A stretch of 64,000 nt of DNA from Minisyncoccota bacterium (GTDB taxonomy: Bacteria > Patescibacteriota > Minisyncoccia > Phycocordibacterales > Phycocordibacteraceae). The stretch spans positions 236,162 through 300,161 of the forward strand of contig JBAZXD010000001.1 in NCBI GenBank assembly GCA_041660025.1. The letters are read 5' to 3'. The notes beneath the pieces are model-generated. The model searched no databases, was not told where the DNA came from, and worked only from the letters and a program-made list of their open reading frames with translations. A program made the position numbers and the translations under genes. Of the stretch, positions 1,511-47,142 are shown one piece after another (the stretch's first letter is position 1; each line of letters begins with the position of its first letter).

Positions 1511-2236
1511 ATGAGTAAAACACAACAATCGCAAAATGATCTGAAAAAGCATCTGGATGAGCAGTTGCATTTTCTGCGTACGTCTGCTGATTCGTATGAC
1601 GCGGGTTACGAAGCCGAAGCAAAGCGTTTGGCTGTAATAATTAGAGTTTTACTTCATGACACTGCGCTAAGTACATCTTTGCTGTCACAACTTGGGCTCA
1701 AGGATAGTCTAGATTTCTACGATTCTGGAATAGTTGAAGGTCCGGGTGTTGCAATAGGTGGTGGCGCATCCCTCGTGGTTATACCTGGCGGTGGCGGGAA
1801 TGCAATCCCATTTTTTGACGATTCTCCCCCTGGAACTAATGGTTATGTAAAATTTACAAAGTATTGGGACAGACCAGTTTTGGAAACTAGAGAAAAACAC
1901 TTCACAAGGAAGGAATTGGTCCTGAGTGTTGCAAATGGAGATGGAGGAGCACATGTTGATCCTGAGTTGGACGAGGAGTACGCAAATCTTTCGCGTAATG
2001 ATGCATTTGGGTGGAAAGCTGGTACCTCTGAGACTGGAATGTCTCCAGTTGGGATAGTCGAGTTGGCTTCTATTAGGCAAATTGCTCATGAGATACTGAG
2101 GACTCTAATCCCAGACTATCCACAGAAAATGCTCCCCAGGACGGGACTGGGCCTCATGTTCCCTAGAATTATTGCTATTAAAGTTGATCCGGAAGATAAA
2201 AAAAAGGACCAAAACAGTCAATCCGAAGAGGGTTAG
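1511..2236 (+). CDS. hypothetical protein (AT-rich island gene 1)
   Basis: ORF with GAGGAGG SD upstream; Gly-rich segment GGGASLVVIPGGGGNAIPFF; no family recognised. Confidence 0.55.
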   Translation: MSKTQQSQNDLKKHLDEQLHFLRTSADSYDAGYEAEAKRLAVIIRVLLHDTALSTSLLSQLGLKDSLDFYDSGIVEGPGVAIGGGASLVVIPGGGGNAIPFFDDSPPGTNGYVKFTKYWDRPVLETREKHFTRKELVLSVANGDGGAHVDPELDEEYANLSRNDAFGWKAGTSETGMSPVGIVELASIRQIAHEILRTLIPDYPQKMLPRTGLGLMFPRIIAIKVDPEDKKKDQNSQSEEG

Positions 2237-2382
2237 AACGGTAAAATAAAAAGTAATCAAAAAAGCCTTGCGGGGCTTGGCGGTATAATGTTCGAGACCG
2301 ATGAGGTCAGCCAAGTCGAGCTAGGTTATCGCGCACGAGATACGTTGCTTAACAAAGTCAGTGAAAGAGATATAATTGACTT

Positions 2383-2889
2383 GTGGATACAATCATACAA
2401 CTAACCCTTGGTCAGGTCTTGGGAGGGACAGCTTTTTTGATAACGTGTGTAGGTCTCCTCCAGTGGCTGATATCTAATTGGCTCAAAATAAGACTAGAAC
2501 AATCAATTAGACATGAGTATGATAAACAGCTTGAAGAGTATAAATTTGCGATTTCGAAACGAGACAGAATTGCGAACATCGCATCCTTCTTTTCGCTATG
2601 GATAAAGTATAGAGGACATGAAAGAAAATGGCTGAATGACAGGGATTTGATTGACTACTATAGAGAGCTCACTCAAATGTCTTTTGAACTAGCATTATGG
2701 GTTGATGATGAGGATCTCTTAAAAGAGGTGATGAAGCGGCTAAAGAATGAAGATGGTTCAGAGAATACAGTCGAGTTATTACTTAGGGCGAAAGGATTGA
2801 TTAGTGAAAACAAAAATTCTACGTTAGGGGCCGACAATATTACTATATGGCCTGCCGACATTAAATTCATTGAAGAGGGGCCAAAATAA
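2383..2889 (+). CDS. hypothetical protein with N-terminal TM helix (island gene 2)
   Basis: 168 aa; hydrophobic N-terminus LGGTAFLITCVGLLQWLI; AT-rich. Confidence 0.5.
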   Translation: MDTIIQLTLGQVLGGTAFLITCVGLLQWLISNWLKIRLEQSIRHEYDKQLEEYKFAISKRDRIANIASFFSLWIKYRGHERKWLNDRDLIDYYRELTQMSFELALWVDDEDLLKEVMKRLKNEDGSENTVELLLRAKGLISENKNSTLGADNITIWPADIKFIEEGPK

Positions 2890-2952
2890 AAGTTCAAGAC
2901 GCATATCAAGGTACTTTTTGCAGTAAGAGCTTTAGGCTCTCACTGCAATTTT

Positions 2953-2961
2953 TGGTATAAT
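2953..2961 (+). promoter_or_regulatory. extended -10 TGGTATAAT; ATG at 2968 is 7 nt downstream (leaderless start)
   Basis: Exact TGnTATAAT consensus; no SD between box and ATG. Confidence 0.5.
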
Positions 2962-2967
2962 CCCTCT

Positions 2968-3333
2968 ATGAAAATCTTTGTTGCCCATTCGAGCAATTTC
3001 GACTTTAAGAATAAGCTCTACGCCCCGCTCCGTAGTTCCGCGCTCAATACCGAGCATGAGATACTTCTCCCTCAGGAAGGGGAGATTGAAGAGATTACGC
3101 GGGAAATGATTAACGGTTGTGACGCAGTCGTGGCGGAGGTATCAGCGCCCTCACTCGGCGCCGGTATCGAGATCGGCTGGGCAGACGCCGCCGGCGTCCC
3201 GGTCATCGCTCTGTACGAGAAGGATGCGCACCCGTCATTCTCTATCGATAATGCCGTCACCGATCGTTTCGCATATGAGAACGCGGACGATATGCTCGAG
3301 AAGCTAGAAGCCGCTCTCAAAGAACTTCAATAA
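2968..3333 (+). CDS. nucleoside 2-deoxyribosyltransferase-like (NDT/DNPH1-fold) small protein
   Basis: 121 aa; CDAVVAEVSAPSLGAGIEIGWADAAGVPVIAL resembles the NDT-family DxGTxFExGyA...GKPV core. Confidence 0.55.
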   Translation: MKIFVAHSSNFDFKNKLYAPLRSSALNTEHEILLPQEGEIEEITREMINGCDAVVAEVSAPSLGAGIEIGWADAAGVPVIALYEKDAHPSFSIDNAVTDRFAYENADDMLEKLEAALKELQ

Positions 3334-3394
3334 ACTTGGAAGTCGAACTTCCAAGTTAGAAACGTGCGGGCAGATTCGGGAGTTATCACAGGGT

Positions 3395-3703
3395 ATGAGC
3401 AACAATCCATTTTTAAATGCCTTTGCGGCGACGGCGTATATCACCGGTATCGCGCTCGCGATGCGGTATGGGCCTAAGGGGCCCGGTGTGGACAGCAGTT
3501 TCATCGCGCCCATTGCCTTCCTCTCCCTCTTCGTTCTCTCCGCCGCGCTGATGGGCTACCTCTTCTTCTACCAGTCCGTCCGGCTCTTGATCGAGGGGAA
3601 ACAACAGGAAGCGGCGAAGTTCCTGTTCACGACCGTGGCGGTGTTCGCCTGCATCACGGGTGCATTTCTCATTGTGTGGCTTATCATCAGCACTCTGCTC
3701 TAG
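3395..3703 (+). CDS. small integral membrane protein (3 predicted TM)
   Basis: 102 aa, strongly hydrophobic. Confidence 0.5.
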   Translation: MSNNPFLNAFAATAYITGIALAMRYGPKGPGVDSSFIAPIAFLSLFVLSAALMGYLFFYQSVRLLIEGKQQEAAKFLFTTVAVFACITGAFLIVWLIISTLL

Positions 3704-3739
3704 GAAGTAAGGGTCAGCTCGGTAGGTTATAATCGAATT

Positions 3740-4099
3740 ATGAACGAAGGGAAACCGAAAGATGAAAAAGTCGTTGACCTTACCGAACGTCAAAGGCAGG
3801 AAATGAATGCGAACAGACGGAAAAGTATAGAAATAACGTCCGAAGGGAGAATCCGGTATCCAGAAGAAGTCCTCGGGATAACGACACGTCAGGCAATAGA
3901 GATCGCCAAAAGGATCGTTGAAGACACTATTGATCTGGATGAGTCGAAGATTGCTTCACAGCGTGAATATATTTCCCTGTCTTCTGTTGGAGAAATACTT
4001 AAGGCGCTTGAACGTTATGAAAAATCCCCTGAATTGTATTCAAGAGAATATGCGCGTGCCATCGCTGAAGAATTAATGAAAAGGTTTCCAGCAAAATAA
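3740..4099 (+). CDS. hypothetical protein (island gene 5)
   Basis: 119 aa; GTTATAAT box at 3726-3733 places the TSS at the ATG. Confidence 0.5.
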   Translation: MNEGKPKDEKVVDLTERQRQEMNANRRKSIEITSEGRIRYPEEVLGITTRQAIEIAKRIVEDTIDLDESKIASQREYISLSSVGEILKALERYEKSPELYSREYARAIAEELMKRFPAK

Positions 4100-4107
4100 G
4101 GCTCTCT

Positions 4108-4136
4108 AAACGGCTCAGACCCCGTCTGAGCCGTTT
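4108..4136 (+). repeat. 29-bp perfect palindrome AAACGGCTCAGAC-CCC-GTCTGAGCCGTTT, copy 1 of 4
   Basis: 13-bp arms with CCC loop; identical copies at 5128, 38858 and 62327. Confidence 0.9.
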
Positions 4137-5127: not shown

Positions 5128-5156
5128 AAACGGCTCAGACCCCGTCTGAGCCGTTT
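5128..5156 (+). repeat. 29-bp palindrome, copy 2
   Basis: Identical to 4108-4136; lies just after the terminator. Confidence 0.9.
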
Positions 5157-27882: not shown

Positions 27883-28515
27883 ATGAAACGAACTTTCAAA
27901 ATTGGTGGAGTAATAATACTTGTTTTACTTTTGAGCGGAGGTTTCATTCGTTGGTTTTTTTCTCCTTTTTTCACATCAGACGAATGTAAGTACTATCAAG
28001 AAAGACTTGCATCTAGAGCTTGTTATGCACTTGATGGCACAATAATACCTATTGCTGAACAGCCAGGCACCATGTTCACAATTCGTTATGATTACGCTTT
28101 CGGAATGGGACCGGGTTGGAGTGCGTACTCAGAAAAAGAATCTAACGGACAAGCACGGTTTTGGACCTATCTTAATCCCCACACAACACTCCCTATATCC
28201 ACCGACGGGACTCGGTATATTGCGCTCTACTATGTTGGCGACAATCAAAGCGGGAAAGATAATCTGTATTTAGGACTCTTTTCTCTTCCGACTTCCGCCA
28301 GAGGACCATTTACATATCAGGACGCGGTTCTTGTTGGAAGTGGTAAAAGAAGTCATTTATCCCACACCACTTTCGAACAGAGGAGTGATGGTGTGATACA
28401 AGTGTCTTACAAAGTAACTCGCTTTGTAGATGATGCTCAACCACAATTGCAGACTGTTCTAGAGGACACGGTGCTTTACCAGATAATTGGCGATAAAATA
28501 CAGGAAATTCAATAG
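27883..28515 (+). CDS. hypothetical signal-anchored/secreted protein in an AT-rich cassette within the tRNA cluster
   Basis: 210 aa; N-terminal TM GGVIILVLLLSGGFI. Confidence 0.5.
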   Translation: MKRTFKIGGVIILVLLLSGGFIRWFFSPFFTSDECKYYQERLASRACYALDGTIIPIAEQPGTMFTIRYDYAFGMGPGWSAYSEKESNGQARFWTYLNPHTTLPISTDGTRYIALYYVGDNQSGKDNLYLGLFSLPTSARGPFTYQDAVLVGSGKRSHLSHTTFEQRSDGVIQVSYKVTRFVDDAQPQLQTVLEDTVLYQIIGDKIQEIQ

Positions 28516-39929: not shown

Positions 39930-42338
39930 ATGGCGTACGACCATACAGACATCGAGAAAAAGGCCCAGGAGAAATGGGCCTCTCTCGATTTATACAAGTC
40001 TGACCTTTCGGATGAGTCGAAGGAGCCCTACTACCTTCTCGTCGAGTTCCCGTACCCCTCGGGCGACCTGCATATCGGGCATTGGTACGCCTTCGCCGTG
40101 ACCGACATCTACGCGCGGATGCTGCGCGCGCGCGGGAAGAACGTACTGTTCCCGATTGGCTTCGACGCGTTCGGCCTACCGGCCGAGAATGCCGCCATCA
40201 AGCACGGCGTCGACCCGAAGGAGTGGACGTATAAGAACATCGAGCGGATGCGCGAACAGCTCGCCTCGATGGGCCCGTCGTTCGACTGGAGCAAGGAGGT
40301 CCTCACCTGCGACCCGGGCTACTACCAGTGGACGCAGTGGCTCTTTGCCAAGCTCTTCGAGCACGATCTTGCCGAGCATAAGAGTGCAGCGGTGAAGTGG
40401 TGCCCGAAGGACCAGACCGTGCTCGCGAATGAGCAGGTGGTCGACGGCCGTTGCGAGCGTTGCGGCACCGAGGTGGAGGAGAAAAAGCTGACGCAATGGT
40501 TCCTGAAGATCACCGACTACGCCGAACGCCTTCTTGAAGGATTGGAGAAATTGCCGTGGCGCAATGAGATAAAAGACGCTCAGCGCGCGTGGATAGGGAA
40601 GAGCGATGGCGCATATCTCGAATTCCAAATCGTCGGGCGCGAAGAAAAAATAAAAGTGTTCACCACGCGGCCGGACACCGTTTTCGGCGCCACCTATGTC
40701 GTGCTCGCGCCCGAGCACGCGCTTGTTTCATCACTGTTGGACGGCGTTTCAAATAAGAAAGAGATCGAGGAGTATGTGCGTACGACCGCGCAGAAGACCG
40801 AGCGCGAACGGAGCGAGAATAAAGAGAAGACCGGCGTGAAGCTCGAGGGCGTTTCAGCGATAAACCCAGCGACAAAAGAAGAAATCCCAGTCTACGTCGC
40901 CGATTACGTCCTCGCCTCCTACGGCACGGGCGCGGTGATGGCCGTCCCCGCCCACGACGAACGCGATTTTGAATTCGCACAAAAATTCGATTTGCCGATA
41001 CAGGAAGTCGTTTCCGCCGAGGGAATGCAGATCCCCTATACTGGCATCGGCACGCTTACCAATTCGAGTGAGTTTACCGGTAAGAACAGCGAGGAGGCGA
41101 AGTGGGACATCGTGAAGTATGCGGGCGGGGAGAAGGCGACTCAGTACCGCATCCGCGATTGGCTCGTGAGCCGCCAGCGCTATTGGGGATGCCCGATACC
41201 CATCGTCTACGACCCGGAGGGGAAGCCGCACGCGATACCTGCCGAGCATTTGCCCTGGCTCCTGCCGACGGATGTCGACTTCACGCCAACGGGCAAGGCG
41301 CCGCTCGCATCCTCACAAGAATTGCAGGAGCGCGTGGTGCGCATTTTCGGCGAGGGCTGGACGCCGGAATACGATACGCTCGATACCTTCATCGACTCCT
41401 CGTGGTACTTCCTCCGCTATCTCGACCCGAAAGATTCGCACGATTTTTCCGATGTGGCGCTGATGAAGAAGTGGTTGCCGGTCAATCGCTACTCGGGCGG
41501 GAGCGAGCACACGACGATGCACCTCCTCTACGCGCGATTCTTTATGAAGGCGCTCTACGACCTCGCGCTTGTGCCGGTGGAAGAGCCGTTCACTGAGCGC
41601 TTCAACCGCGGGCTCGTTATGGGCCCCGACGGGCAGAAGATGAGCAAGTCGAAGGGGAACGTCGTGAATCCGGACGAATTCGTACAGAAGTACGGCGCGG
41701 ACGCGGTGCGTGTCTTCCTTGCATTTATCGGCCCCTACAACGAGCCGGGGAGCTATCCCTGGAGCCTCGACGGCGTCGCTTCGATGCGTAAGTTCCTTGA
41801 GCGCGTGGCTAGAATGGTCGGAATTGTACAGGGAGCACAAGGGATTCTTCGCACACTAGGGAAAGAAATAAATCATAAACCGATAGATCCATTAATTGCT
41901 GCAACGGTCAAAAAAGTTGCTGAAGATGGCGACCGCTTCAAATTTAATACAGGAGTGGCTGCTCTGATGAGTCTTCTAAATGAGATGGAGATCTCATCTC
42001 AAGTATCACTCTCGAATGTTCGCGACTTTGTCATCATGCTCGCGCCTTTTGCGCCACACCTCGTCGAACACCTCTGGGAACAGCTTGGTGGGGAAGGGAG
42101 TGTTCATCAGCAGTCGTGGCCCATCTTTGACCCGAGTCTACTTATCTCGAGTACTGTGAATGTCACAGTGCAGGTCAATGGCAAGCGTCGCGGTTCGATT
42201 ATTCTTCCGGCAGACGCTCCAGAAGACAGCGCCATCGCAGAAGCTCTCAAAATTCCTGTCGTGACGGCCTCATTCACCGGTAAAGAACCAAAGCGAGTTG
42301 TGTACGTACCAAATAAAATAATTAATCTCGTTGTATAA
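39930..42338 (+). CDS. leuS: leucyl-tRNA synthetase
   Basis: HIGH (GDLHIGH), KMSKS (QKMSKSKGNVV), full-length class I homology; the last ~500 nt are AT-richer. Confidence 0.97.
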   Translation: MAYDHTDIEKKAQEKWASLDLYKSDLSDESKEPYYLLVEFPYPSGDLHIGHWYAFAVTDIYARMLRARGKNVLFPIGFDAFGLPAENAAIKHGVDPKEWTYKNIERMREQLASMGPSFDWSKEVLTCDPGYYQWTQWLFAKLFEHDLAEHKSAAVKWCPKDQTVLANEQVVDGRCERCGTEVEEKKLTQWFLKITDYAERLLEGLEKLPWRNEIKDAQRAWIGKSDGAYLEFQIVGREEKIKVFTTRPDTVFGATYVVLAPEHALVSSLLDGVSNKKEIEEYVRTTAQKTERERSENKEKTGVKLEGVSAINPATKEEIPVYVADYVLASYGTGAVMAVPAHDERDFEFAQKFDLPIQEVVSAEGMQIPYTGIGTLTNSSEFTGKNSEEAKWDIVKYAGGEKATQYRIRDWLVSRQRYWGCPIPIVYDPEGKPHAIPAEHLPWLLPTDVDFTPTGKAPLASSQELQERVVRIFGEGWTPEYDTLDTFIDSSWYFLRYLDPKDSHDFSDVALMKKWLPVNRYSGGSEHTTMHLLYARFFMKALYDLALVPVEEPFTERFNRGLVMGPDGQKMSKSKGNVVNPDEFVQKYGADAVRVFLAFIGPYNEPGSYPWSLDGVASMRKFLERVARMVGIVQGAQGILRTLGKEINHKPIDPLIAATVKKVAEDGDRFKFNTGVAALMSLLNEMEISSQVSLSNVRDFVIMLAPFAPHLVEHLWEQLGGEGSVHQQSWPIFDPSLLISSTVNVTVQVNGKRRGSIILPADAPEDSAIAEALKIPVVTASFTGKEPKRVVYVPNKIINLVV

Positions 42339-42339
42339 T
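42332..42339 (+). promoter_or_regulatory. -10 TGTATAAT overlapping the leuS stop codon; downstream ATG at 42346
   Basis: TAA stop (42336-42338) lies inside TATAAT. Confidence 0.4.
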
Positions 42340-42345
42340 CACTCC

Positions 42346-42948
42346 ATGAATACAACCCAAAAGGGTTTCGCGAGTGTTGTTTTAATTATCGCTCTAGTCA
42401 TCATCATTGTGGGTTGGTTGGGCTATTTTGAATTAACACAAAAATCGAGTGTTACTACAACCTCTAGCCCAGAAAAAAGTCAGTCAACGAAGGAAGACCA
42501 AGAAATACCCTGGAAAGAGTACGTCAATCTCGACTTTGGCATATCCTTTTCTCATCCAGACAGCTGGCAGTGCAAAACTTATAAGACAAACCTCTTTCAT
42601 CCAGATTGGTATCAAACAATCTGTGATGATGATGGCACATGGTCGGGGGACTCATTGGTAGCCATTTCGGTACCGCACACCACGAACACCCGATCGCTTG
42701 GGGTTAGCACAATTCGCAGCGGGACAATCACGGGGCAAAATTCATCTACAATCACGAAAACCATTTACCATTCTGATAAATTTGAAGATCTGGGCTCGGT
42801 TGCATATATCTTTAGCGGATCTTCGAACATGAAGAGCTATGATATGGGCGCTATGTATGGTGGCCTCGATAAACCATACAGGAGCGCTGAAGAAGCCGAG
42901 GATGTCTTGGATACCATTGCTAAATCTCTCATCATTCGCTCAAATTAA
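42346..42948 (+). CDS. hypothetical signal-anchored/secreted protein in the AT-rich segment
   Basis: 201 aa from MNTTQKGF; N-terminal TM. Confidence 0.5.
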   Translation: MNTTQKGFASVVLIIALVIIIVGWLGYFELTQKSSVTTTSSPEKSQSTKEDQEIPWKEYVNLDFGISFSHPDSWQCKTYKTNLFHPDWYQTICDDDGTWSGDSLVAISVPHTTNTRSLGVSTIRSGTITGQNSSTITKTIYHSDKFEDLGSVAYIFSGSSNMKSYDMGAMYGGLDKPYRSAEEAEDVLDTIAKSLIIRSN

Positions 42949-42971
42949 AACCAAAAACGGTATGCATCTGA

Positions 42972-43094
42972 CACCGCCGCCGGCTAGAGCTGGCCGAGGC
43001 GCTCAAGATACCGGCTGTCACGGTCGCCATCGACGGGAATGAGCCGAAGCGGGTTATTTATGTGCCGGGCAGAATCCTAAACCTTGTGGTATAA
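42972..43094 (+). pseudogene. leuS: displaced remnant of an alternative leuS 3' end
   Basis: Translates ...LAEALKIPAVTVAIDGNEPKRVIYVPGRILNLVV* versus the leuS C-terminus IAEALKIPVVTASFTGKEPKRVVYVPNKIINLVV*; in-frame TGA upstream. Confidence 0.65.
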
Positions 43095-43103
43095 TCCGCG
43101 CTA

Positions 43104-43132
43104 TTGACTCTTTATAAGGCATTTGCTATAAA
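43104..43132 (+). promoter_or_regulatory. sigma70-like promoter TTGACT-17-TATAAAT
   Basis: Consensus spacing; the ATG of the next gene at 43142 is ~3 nt after the predicted TSS. Confidence 0.5.
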
Positions 43133-43141
43133 TTAGACCAC

Positions 43142-44221
43142 ATGAAGAAGGCCAGCAAAACCGTGACGCAAGGGAAGACGAAAACCGCCCCTATTGCCTC
43201 GTTTTCTTTTGATAGTGCGACGCTCGCGAAGCGCCTCTTGGCCGCCGCTCCGGAGCGCGCGCGCGAAGTCCTTATCCGCCGTTTCGGCCTGGGTACGAAC
43301 CCGGAACGTGAGACCCTGGAGGCTATCGGCGACCAGTCCAGCATTACCCGCGAGCGCGTACGCCAGATCGAGGCCGCCGGACTCGACGCCGTACGGGCAA
43401 GCAAAGCTTTTAAAGAGGCGCACACCGCTTTTGAAGAGATCGCGAAGTATATCCACTCGCTCGGCGCCATCGTGCCCGAAGAGACGCTCCTTTCCGCGCT
43501 CGGCAAGGATGAGAAGAGTCGTAATCGGTTCCGCTTCTTCCTTATGGTCAATGCGGCGTTCTTCCGCGAACGTGAGACGAACGATTTCCTCGCCCGCTGG
43601 CACGTAGACCACGCGACGGCGAAGCATATTCACGATGCTCTCACGCGCCTCTACTCCTCGCTTTCCGATACCGACGTGATCCCCGAGGGAGAACTGCTTG
43701 ACCGTTTCCTCGACGAGCTGAAGAGCGTCAATGATGCCTACAAGAACGAGGAAGTGCTGAAGCGCTGGCTCTCGCTCTCTAAGCACATCGGGAGCAATCC
43801 GCTATACGAGTGGGGTCGCACGACGGCGCCCGCCATCCGCGTCAAGGGCGTCCGCGATTACGCGTACCTCGCGGTCAAGCGCCATGGCGCTCCGATGCAT
43901 TTCTCCGATGTCGCCAAGACTATCGGTACGCTCTTCTCGAAGAAGGCGCACATTGCGACAACGCACAACGAGCTCATCAAGGATCCTCGCTTTGTACTCG
44001 TCGGCCGCGGGCTCTACGCGCTTACCGAGTGGGGATATAAGCCGGGCGTCGTGCGCGAGGTTATCCGCGAGACGCTTGAGGCGCAGGGCCCGATGAAGAA
44101 AGAGGAGATCATCAAGCATGTGAAGAAGGCCCGTTTTGTGAAGGACAACACCATCCTGGTGAATCTCAACGATTCCCGCTATTTCAAGCGCCTCAAGGAC
44201 GGTCGTTACGCGGCGGTCTGA
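43142..44221 (+). CDS. DNA-binding protein with sigma-70 region 4-like HTH and C-terminal HARE-HTH domain
   Basis: ETLEAIGDQSSITRERVRQIEAAGL (region 4 signature); GAPMHFSDVAKTI...RFVLVGRGLYALTEWGY (HARE-HTH signature). Confidence 0.55.
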   Translation: MKKASKTVTQGKTKTAPIASFSFDSATLAKRLLAAAPERAREVLIRRFGLGTNPERETLEAIGDQSSITRERVRQIEAAGLDAVRASKAFKEAHTAFEEIAKYIHSLGAIVPEETLLSALGKDEKSRNRFRFFLMVNAAFFRERETNDFLARWHVDHATAKHIHDALTRLYSSLSDTDVIPEGELLDRFLDELKSVNDAYKNEEVLKRWLSLSKHIGSNPLYEWGRTTAPAIRVKGVRDYAYLAVKRHGAPMHFSDVAKTIGTLFSKKAHIATTHNELIKDPRFVLVGRGLYALTEWGYKPGVVREVIRETLEAQGPMKKEEIIKHVKKARFVKDNTILVNLNDSRYFKRLKDGRYAAV

Positions 44222-46704: not shown

Positions 46705-47142
46705 ATGCAAGAAAATCAGAATGAGAATGTTTTCTACGGGATATATAACTCCGGGAAAATGTCGATAAATCTCGAAAGTGCCGAACCGTTCTTCAAAGCT
46801 CTTAATAGAGTTTTACATATCTACATCGTCCCGTGTTCTGTGATTGAACGCTTTAACCATGGACCTGGATGTGGGCTCGTCGTAGATATGGCGCGATACC
46901 GGATGGAACGGCGTAAATATGTAATGTACATTGCGGAAGATTTGCCACATTCCGAACGGCTCATCACAATAGCCCACGAATTGATTCATCTGATACTGAC
47001 GATGCAGGGGTTTTCGTTTGAGCGCCAATGGCTTGATGAAAAGAGTGAGCCGTGGATAGAGGAAATAGCTAAGCGGTTTTACCAAGCAAACCCTAACTTC
47101 CTGAATTGGGTGTATAGAGATTACGTGAGAATCGCCGGTTGA
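46705..47142 (+). CDS. HExxH metallopeptidase-like protein (ImmA/IrrE-like?) in an AT-rich cassette
   Basis: ITIAHELIHLIL zinc-binding motif; 145 aa. Confidence 0.4.
   Translation: MQENQNENVFYGIYNSGKMSINLESAEPFFKALNRVLHIYIVPCSVIERFNHGPGCGLVVDMARYRMERRKYVMYIAEDLPHSERLITIAHELIHLILTMQGFSFERQWLDEKSEPWIEEIAKRFYQANPNFLNWVYRDYVRIAG

Follow-up and report, generated by a model that had tools for sequence, protein, structure and literature searches.

The 64,000-nucleotide stretch of DNA analyzed here (the window, from contig JBAZXD010000001.1) originates from an uncultivated member of the Paceibacteria, represented by a Candidatus Paceibacterota metagenome-assembled genome (MAG) whose exact LeuS protein (P0001) is encoded on a 387-kb contig available at NCBI and JGI. 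Within this window, the leucyl-tRNA synthetase gene leuS turned out to be a chimera. Its present 3′ end and the cargo gene directly following it are foreign and AT-richer, and the short fragment downstream of the cargo gene is the displaced original leuS 3′ end. With an essential gene turned chimeric, a single gene imported alongside, and the native 3′ end left as an orphan, the region represents a recombination scar, well above what is expected by chance. With moderate confidence, we attribute it to an import by recombination that was anchored in leuS and followed the type described as homology-facilitated illegitimate recombination (HFIR).

The evidence starts with the base composition of leuS itself. 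The GC content at third codon positions (GC3) drops from 0.78 to 0.42 at codon 626, with the maximum-likelihood change point located at nt 41808. The corresponding likelihood ratio of 77.9 was matched by none of 500 permutations. Calculated per block of 30 codons, GC3 ranges from 0.67 to 0.93 as far as position 41819, with a single exception of 0.57 at 40560–40649, and from there up to the stop codon it ranges from 0.23 to 0.57. The first-pass annotation of the window had described leuS as AT-richer from ~41825 onward, which is borne out by this analysis. A shift of this kind is not inherent to the C-terminal domain of LeuS, since the GC3 difference between the N-terminal and the C-terminal part is small in 38 relatives (0.05 ± 0.056, maximum 0.165), compared with 0.36 in the window. 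The native part of the protein shares 83–87% amino acid (aa) identity with the closest Paceibacteria LeuS. The left junction coincides with the 3′ border of FLAFIGPYNEPGSYPWSLDGVASMRKFLERV, the longest near-invariant and best conserved block of LeuS (column conservation 0.8–0.98), and a variable linker follows directly. Diverged genes are most likely to undergo a homologous crossover at such a place, as expected for an anchor. The imported part continues in frame and retains the conserved C-terminal motifs and blocks, by which an intact target gene was restored.

The second line of evidence is the remnant downstream of the cargo gene. Its in-frame translation reads LAEALKIPAVTVAIDGNEPKRVIYVPGRILNLVV followed by a stop codon, and the C-terminal end of the present LeuS reads IAEALKIPVVTASFTGKEPKRVVYVPNKIINLVV, likewise followed by the stop. 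Both share 23 identical residues out of 34, a similarity reached by none of 100,000 shuffles. On DNA level, 68 of 105 nt are identical. The majority of the 37 mismatches (25) fall on third positions, and 16 of these 25 carry A/T in the current leuS copy and G/C in the remnant. The in-frame homology proposed by the first-pass annotation was thereby confirmed, although not over the entire GC-rich segment to which it had been assigned (42972–43094): positions 42990–43094 are homologous, whereas the first 18 nt are GC-rich without being clearly homologous. Due to the lack of a start codon and the presence of a stop codon 9 codons upstream of the L encoded at 42990, the remnant has to be regarded as a pseudogene fragment. 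Its last bases carry TGGTATAAT, overlapping the leuS stop codon.

Both its sequence and its location identify this fragment as the original end of the gene. In comparison with the three nearest relatives as determined by the N-terminal part of LeuS (P0002, P0003, and P0004), the remnant shows 82%, 79%, and 71% aa identity, respectively, versus 65%, 65%, and 56% for the current end. Averaged over the 20 closest relatives, the identity amounts to 0.63 for the remnant versus 0.58 for the current end (paired Wilcoxon p = 0.008, the relatives not being independent of each other). Furthermore, the remnant terminates 47 nt ahead of the downstream gene sig359, matching the intact leuS end in relatives, and is followed by the same promoter-like motif. 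This places the remnant exactly at the ancestral position of the leuS end. The earlier proposal of a replacement 3′ end with the displaced original end left downstream consequently stands. The coordinates of all features are compiled in the following table.

Table. Features of the leuS region, with positions counted from the first letter of the window
Feature	Position	Strand	Remarks
leuS	39930–42338	+	unbroken open reading frame of 802 codons
Native 5′ four-fifths of leuS, codons 1–626	39930–41807	+	GC 0.59, GC3 0.78
Left (homologous) recombination junction	41775–41823	+	2-lnL (log-likelihood) support interval for the change in GC3, with its optimum at 41808
Imported 3′ fifth of leuS, codons 627–802 and stop	41808–42338	+	GC 0.47, GC3 0.42
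Cargo gene, 200 aa	42346–42948	+	GC 0.43, GC3 0.46; ATG 7 nt after the leuS stop
Right junction filler, origin uncertain	42949–42989	+	42949–42963 AT-rich, 42964–42989 GC-rich
Displaced original leuS 3′ end, 34 codons and TAA	42990–43094	+	GC3 0.71; without start codon; pseudogene fragment
Native intergenic region with promoter-like TTGACT (43104–43109), 17 nt, TATAAA (43127–43132)	43095–43141	+	9 nt between the motif and the ATG of sig359
sig359, native downstream neighbor, 359-aa Sigma70_r4 and HARE-HTH protein	43142–44221	+	GC3 0.76

For comparison with related genomes, 80 loci from species-representative genomes (LeuS as query) and 80 metagenome loci (downstream protein as query) were collected, and the junction counts refer to 109 related loci in which the end of leuS as well as the start of sig359 was readable. 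The gene order in the Paceibacteria/Kaiserbacteria relatives is DUF5671, leuS, sig359, p465 (coding for a 465-aa protein), and yceG. The gap between leuS and sig359 mostly comprises 44–60 nt, otherwise small insertions are found. The first-pass annotation had called for relatives whose leuS ends without the extra gene, and these proved to be the rule: 108 of the 109 loci have no cargo gene between leuS and sig359. Only one of them, L105, harbors an inserted gene at this site. Large or integrase-bearing inserts at leuS were detected in none of the 109. The promoter-like motif ahead of sig359 (TTGACT, 17 nt, TATAAA) recurs almost unchanged in over 80 related loci. It was not called by the consensus scanner because the sixth base of its −10 hexamer is an A. 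Its distance to the ATG of sig359 would imply a very short leader. The cargo genes of both the window and L105 begin 7–8 nt after a TATAAT equivalent to TGGTATAAT.

The locus L105 represents the second case of a gene gained at this junction. It is a 2.1-kb groundwater contig on which a leuS end, a spacer of 8 nt, a 129-aa open reading frame (ORF), a short leuS remnant, and the conserved promoter follow each other. The ORF codes for a small anchored protein, the first 54 residues of which are 52% identical to the leader of the cargo protein in the window, and its Cys-rich C-terminus is unrelated. The leuS remnant comprises 15–30 nt, AACCTTGTGGTATAA, perhaps 30 nt overall. GC3 values of 0.56, 0.41, and 0.68 were determined for the leuS end, the ORF, and sig359, respectively. 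The length of this remnant differs from the one in the window, which argues against a fixed attachment (att) site and for illegitimate joints.

In the course of events favored by us, linear DNA from a lower-GC Paceibacteria relative would have recombined into the chromosome. The donor piece would have comprised the last ~176 codons of the donor leuS together with the adjoining downstream gene for a membrane-anchored PsbP-fold protein. Its left end would have paired with the recipient leuS in the conserved block ending near codon 626, resulting in a homologous crossover at ~41775–41823. The right end, without a homologue, would have been joined illegitimately inside the 3′ region of the recipient leuS, just upstream of 42990. 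By this, ~1.15–1.2 kb would have been gained and ~420 nt of native leuS (codons ~627–767) lost, with the last 34 native codons being stranded ahead of the sig359 promoter, itself left intact. The chromosome would thereby have acquired a chimeric LeuS of full length and a new cargo gene, together with an orphaned 3′ fragment. That the joint lies within leuS would be a matter of selection, because joints between the anchor and the sig359 promoter keep both genes working and necessarily leave a remnant of arbitrary length. HFIR is characterized by insertions and deletions of ~1 kb, one homologous and one illegitimate end, and a microhomology of 3–10 bp at the joint (PMC3240628), and an insertion of ~1.15–1.2 kb combined with a deletion of ~0.4 kb is of the scale reported there. 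Two further reports (PMC10187176, PMC10633639) describe natural competence as demonstrated in Saccharibacteria, another lineage of the Patescibacteria, making transformation a plausible route here as well. We infer that transformation was the transfer route and that the right end was joined illegitimately. The first-pass annotation had listed an import by recombination from a relative of lower GC as a fallback, and this is now the explanation favored by the evidence.

Several observations weigh against this interpretation. The donor lineage was not found among the sequences searched. A comparison of the imported C-terminal 172 aa of LeuS with 5.8 billion proteins retrieved short fragments only, with an identity of ≤70%, and rescoring all fetched proteins against the imported part yielded ≤67% identity over its whole length. 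Best identities of 67–70% point to an unsampled donor, though of the same broad LeuS type. A genome of the same species without the insertion was not present in the collections searched. On protein level, the imported part exceeds the expected divergence only slightly (mean residual −0.056, rank 3 of 66), and for this reason its discordance was not taken as primary evidence. The closest homologues of the cargo protein, two from a word-indexed search with 52–56% identity, do not adjoin leuS in either case: one is located beside rve transposase fragments, the other beside a type IV pilus cluster. Finally, the leuS remnant may extend, decayed and shifted in frame, into the filler that separates it from the cargo gene. 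The frame giving NQKRYASDTAAG weakly resembles LeuS ..NGKRRGS..DA.E..A, with a score reached by 1.7% of shuffles after three frames had been tried. Such a faint likeness to more leuS would be a weak hint of a donor already carrying a remnant.

This hint leads to the first of the alternatives, which we consider rather unlikely. A pre-formed cassette would have been exchanged by two homologous crossovers, the donor already being arranged as leuS, cargo, old leuS remnant, and sig359. The left crossover would have occurred near 41808 and the right one between the donor remnant and the recipient leuS 3′ end near 42964–42990, and the cassette would spread between genomes through leuS homology on both sides. 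The 41-nt filler, weakly LeuS-like in a shifted frame and AT-rich like the import in its first part, is in line with such an exchange, but this likeness is as weak as stated above. L105 documents a cargo gene flanked by a duplicated leuS end in another genome. Its cargo shares with the one of the window the 52%-identical N-terminal leader and the spacing of 7–8 nt after the leuS stop; however, this leader is generic, and the far shorter remnant of L105 does not reveal a common cassette. A donor of the postulated structure was not found.

The first-pass annotation had understood the arrangement as the footprint of an element that inserts in the manner of islands targeting tRNA and tmRNA genes. 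Prophages such as phage 21 and e14 in icd, as well as tRNA/tmRNA islands, bring along a substitute 3′ end keeping their target intact, and leave the original end duplicated downstream. In these systems an integrase is present, the att cores are identical, and the displaced piece equals the replaced one in extent. The likeness to the leuS region is apparent, since a replacement 3′ end, a cargo, and a displaced original end are what such elements leave behind, and further low-GC islets next to tRNA genes are found elsewhere in the window. All three hallmarks nevertheless fail here. Pfam detected no integrase, recombinase, or transposase domain in the ORFs scanned within ~10 kb, which were those between 35.6 and 54 kb as well as the low-GC ORFs, in agreement with the absence of an integrase stated before. 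No att-like direct repeat flanks the block. The ~176 replaced codons are opposed to a remnant of 34 codons. With a remnant far shorter than the replaced part, a single site-specific crossover is impossible, and an extra, fortuitously placed deletion would be needed. A decayed site-specific element with its own leuS 3′ end, having subsequently lost its integrase, most of its sequence, and ~400 nt of the displaced leuS, therefore appears improbable to us. The lack of large or integrase-bearing inserts at the related loci speaks against it as well, as do the absence of cargo relatives from the viral contigs and phage genomes searched and a brief literature search, which found no paper on an element integrating into leuS. 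In addition, the same junctions do not recur in independent genomes, L105 differing in remnant and cargo. The 7-mer GGCTAGA (41807–41813 and 42982–42988), the only word common to both junction windows, was evaluated as att core or target-site duplication and rejected, because its two positions are ~139 codons apart and non-homologous within leuS, and because a shared 7-mer arises in 17% of shuffles. Scans of the region 41–44 kb for Rfam families and tRNAs did not yield any match.

We regard it as quite improbable that the window and L105 belong to a family of integrase-less single-gene cassettes, homing to the junction of leuS stop and sig359 promoter by host recombination alone. The leuS 3′ part would in this case serve as homology arm, the TATAAT at the stop codon would double as −10 box, and the cargo mRNA would be near-leaderless. 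If true, this would describe a recombination-driven homing cassette delivering variable surface proteins to a site which in at least nine related loci also draws a miniature inverted-repeat transposable element (MITE).

An assembly chimera, formed from GC-rich and lower-GC co-occurring Paceibacteria species via shared k-mers in conserved leuS, is hardly credible: the left junction does adjoin a block conserved across species and contigs of related populations do end near these borders (L001, L105/L107), but the Logan contig L001 (SRR18595301), an independent assembly, is 100% identical to the window and thus to the 387-kb MAG contig from 41766 to 43135, covering both junctions, the contig breaks are explained by promoter and leuS blocks being near-identical across species, and a leuS 3′ fragment directly after the cargo would still be required in one organism, making the remnant real in any case. 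Short-read contigs of several samples break at or near the borders between leuS 3′ part and cargo (L001, the start of L105, and the start of L107, which equals L105 position 940). We also considered these breaks as evidence of a polymorphic insertion; cross-species k-mers in the conserved promoter and leuS block are likely the better explanation. The exact LeuS protein, even though deposited in the protein database as P0001, was not found by the exact-sequence contig lookup.

Extension of the view to the entire family shows that the import into leuS does not stand isolated. Two LeuS types, ~50% identical, occupy one and the same syntenic slot, sharing either ~80% or ~50% aa identity with the N-terminal part of the window's protein, while the flanking DUF5671 and sig359 products range from 70 to 91%. 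The contrast is between L097, L099, L100, L110, L131, L148, L154, L159, and L163 and the other loci. The discrepancy between gene types and flanks indicates that replacement of the whole leuS gene by flanking homology also took place in this family. The gene is thus a recombination hot spot in this family, which counts in favor of the import anchored in leuS.

Further rearrangements were observed at this locus in relatives. The MITE-like element, present in relatives and not in the window, comprises ~85 inserted nt with a variable core of 56–73 nt, terminal inverted repeats of 12 nt (CCCGTTAGAGAC/GTCTCTAACGGG), and a 6-bp target duplication, GTGGTA or ATGGAT. It resides at the leuS stop codon in at least nine loci, including L080 (9400–9472), L013, L089, L099, L100, L103, L134, and L135, as well as a truncated copy in L149, and its insertion leads to a LeuS terminating in ..NLVVPR ahead of the stop. 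It was also detected at the yceG start (L002 9336–9391, L013 11207–11262), and it has no match in Rfam. The locus L132 shows a tandem duplication at the leuS stop (~135–160, TGTGGTATAA|TGTGGCATAA), possibly left by an insertion or deletion that had affected this hot spot before. In total, the leuS/sig359 junction emerges as a local hot spot of gene insertions, MITEs, and swaps of whole leuS alleles. Three loci in which leuS is not followed by sig359 (L007, L017, L141) were set aside as rearrangements near housekeeping-looking genes, with no obvious integrase upon ORF inspection only. Two short LeuS C-terminal ORFs located on long contigs (P0165, P0162) were considered as further displaced remnants and rejected, being pieces of fragmented or contig-end leuS gene calls.

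The LeuS proteins of relatives often reach a size of 935–1134 aa due to inserted NUDIX (PF00293) and/or alpha/beta-hydrolase domains at the equivalents of window residues ~237 and ~362–369. These long variants include P0009, P0012, P0013, P0017, P0082, and P0109, as well as the loci L050, L053, L057, L062, L064, L066, and L080. A perfect palindrome of 29 nt, AAACGGCTCAGACCCCGTCTGAGCCGTTT, appears twice in the window (4108–4136 and 5128–5156), and a closely related hairpin is located between leuS and sig359 in two relatives, L125 and L154. Elsewhere in the window, islets of small genes with low GC3 (0.34–0.49) were recognized at 1511–4100, 27883–28515, and 46705–47142. One of them directly follows tRNA-Gln (1347–1419), one is placed between two tRNA-Ala genes and codes for an anchored 210-aa protein, and the third follows yceG and codes for a Peptidase_M78-like protein. 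No integrase domain was detected in the ORFs scanned.

The cargo gene had already been described as an AT-rich gene for a secreted protein, in accordance with our data when its 200 aa are counted from the ATG. In its product, an N-terminal membrane anchor is joined through a Ser/Thr-rich linker to a PsbP/Mog1-like beta-sandwich domain of ~150 aa with two conserved Cys residues. The Pfam match to PF18933 PsbP_2 (E = 3e-8) chiefly covers the leader region. An AlphaFold model based on an alignment of 17 sequences reached a predicted local distance difference test (pLDDT) score of 86. Its best fold matches in the PDB were CyanoP/PsbP with a probability of 1.0 at modest TM-scores of 0.37–0.45, and matches to immunity proteins of type VI secretion systems (T6SS) were weak only, with E of 0.06 or worse. 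The family is small: of 1.84 billion cluster representatives, 17 were obtained at E ≤ 1e-10. Its leader at the N-terminus is generic, as well over 100 of the 150 listed library matches cover residues 1–80 only. The cargo protein would most likely act outside the cytoplasm, in binding or as a scaffold.

Horizontal transfer and mosaicism of aminoacyl-tRNA synthetase genes are known, and in the window, too, a foreign segment has replaced a native one. Different from these cases, the break falls within leuS, a passenger gene was taken along, and the scar is still visible. HFIR as observed in natural transformation of Acinetobacter, Streptococcus pneumoniae, and Pseudomonas stutzeri (PMC3240628) shares with it foreign DNA beyond a homologous anchor, the kb-scale insertion accompanied by a recipient deletion, and the independence of any element-encoded recombinase; an anchor at one end only and an illegitimate joint at the other would be further common traits. 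In contrast, the present case is a natural footprint in a metagenome-assembled genome of the candidate phyla radiation (CPR) only, its anchor is a diverged essential gene, and its product is a functional chimeric enzyme. HFIR has also been discussed and proposed as the mechanism behind orphaned 3′ ends at T6SS/Rhs loci (PMC5361080), in which a constant 5′ part is combined with variable 3′ ends that have been displaced. [quoted passage not shown] Here, however, a housekeeping aminoacyl-tRNA synthetase is affected instead of a polymorphic toxin, with a single orphan and no array, and neither an immunity-gene logic nor signs of orphan reuse are present.

The scar thereby adds a new case to a known process, from a phylum that is poorly studied. 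It is useful rather than surprising and leaves the current understanding of recombination mechanisms unchanged. Annotations should label the remnant a pseudogene fragment, and phylogenies call for caution with the chimeric leuS. With its junctions still readable, it provides a clean natural footprint of gene gain in an uncultivated CPR bacterium with a reduced genome, the new gene having been linked on its arrival to part of an essential housekeeping gene. It shows that inter-lineage recombination operates in Paceibacteria, probably after DNA uptake, and that lineages of very different GC content can contribute the parts of one functional, chimeric aminoacyl-tRNA synthetase.

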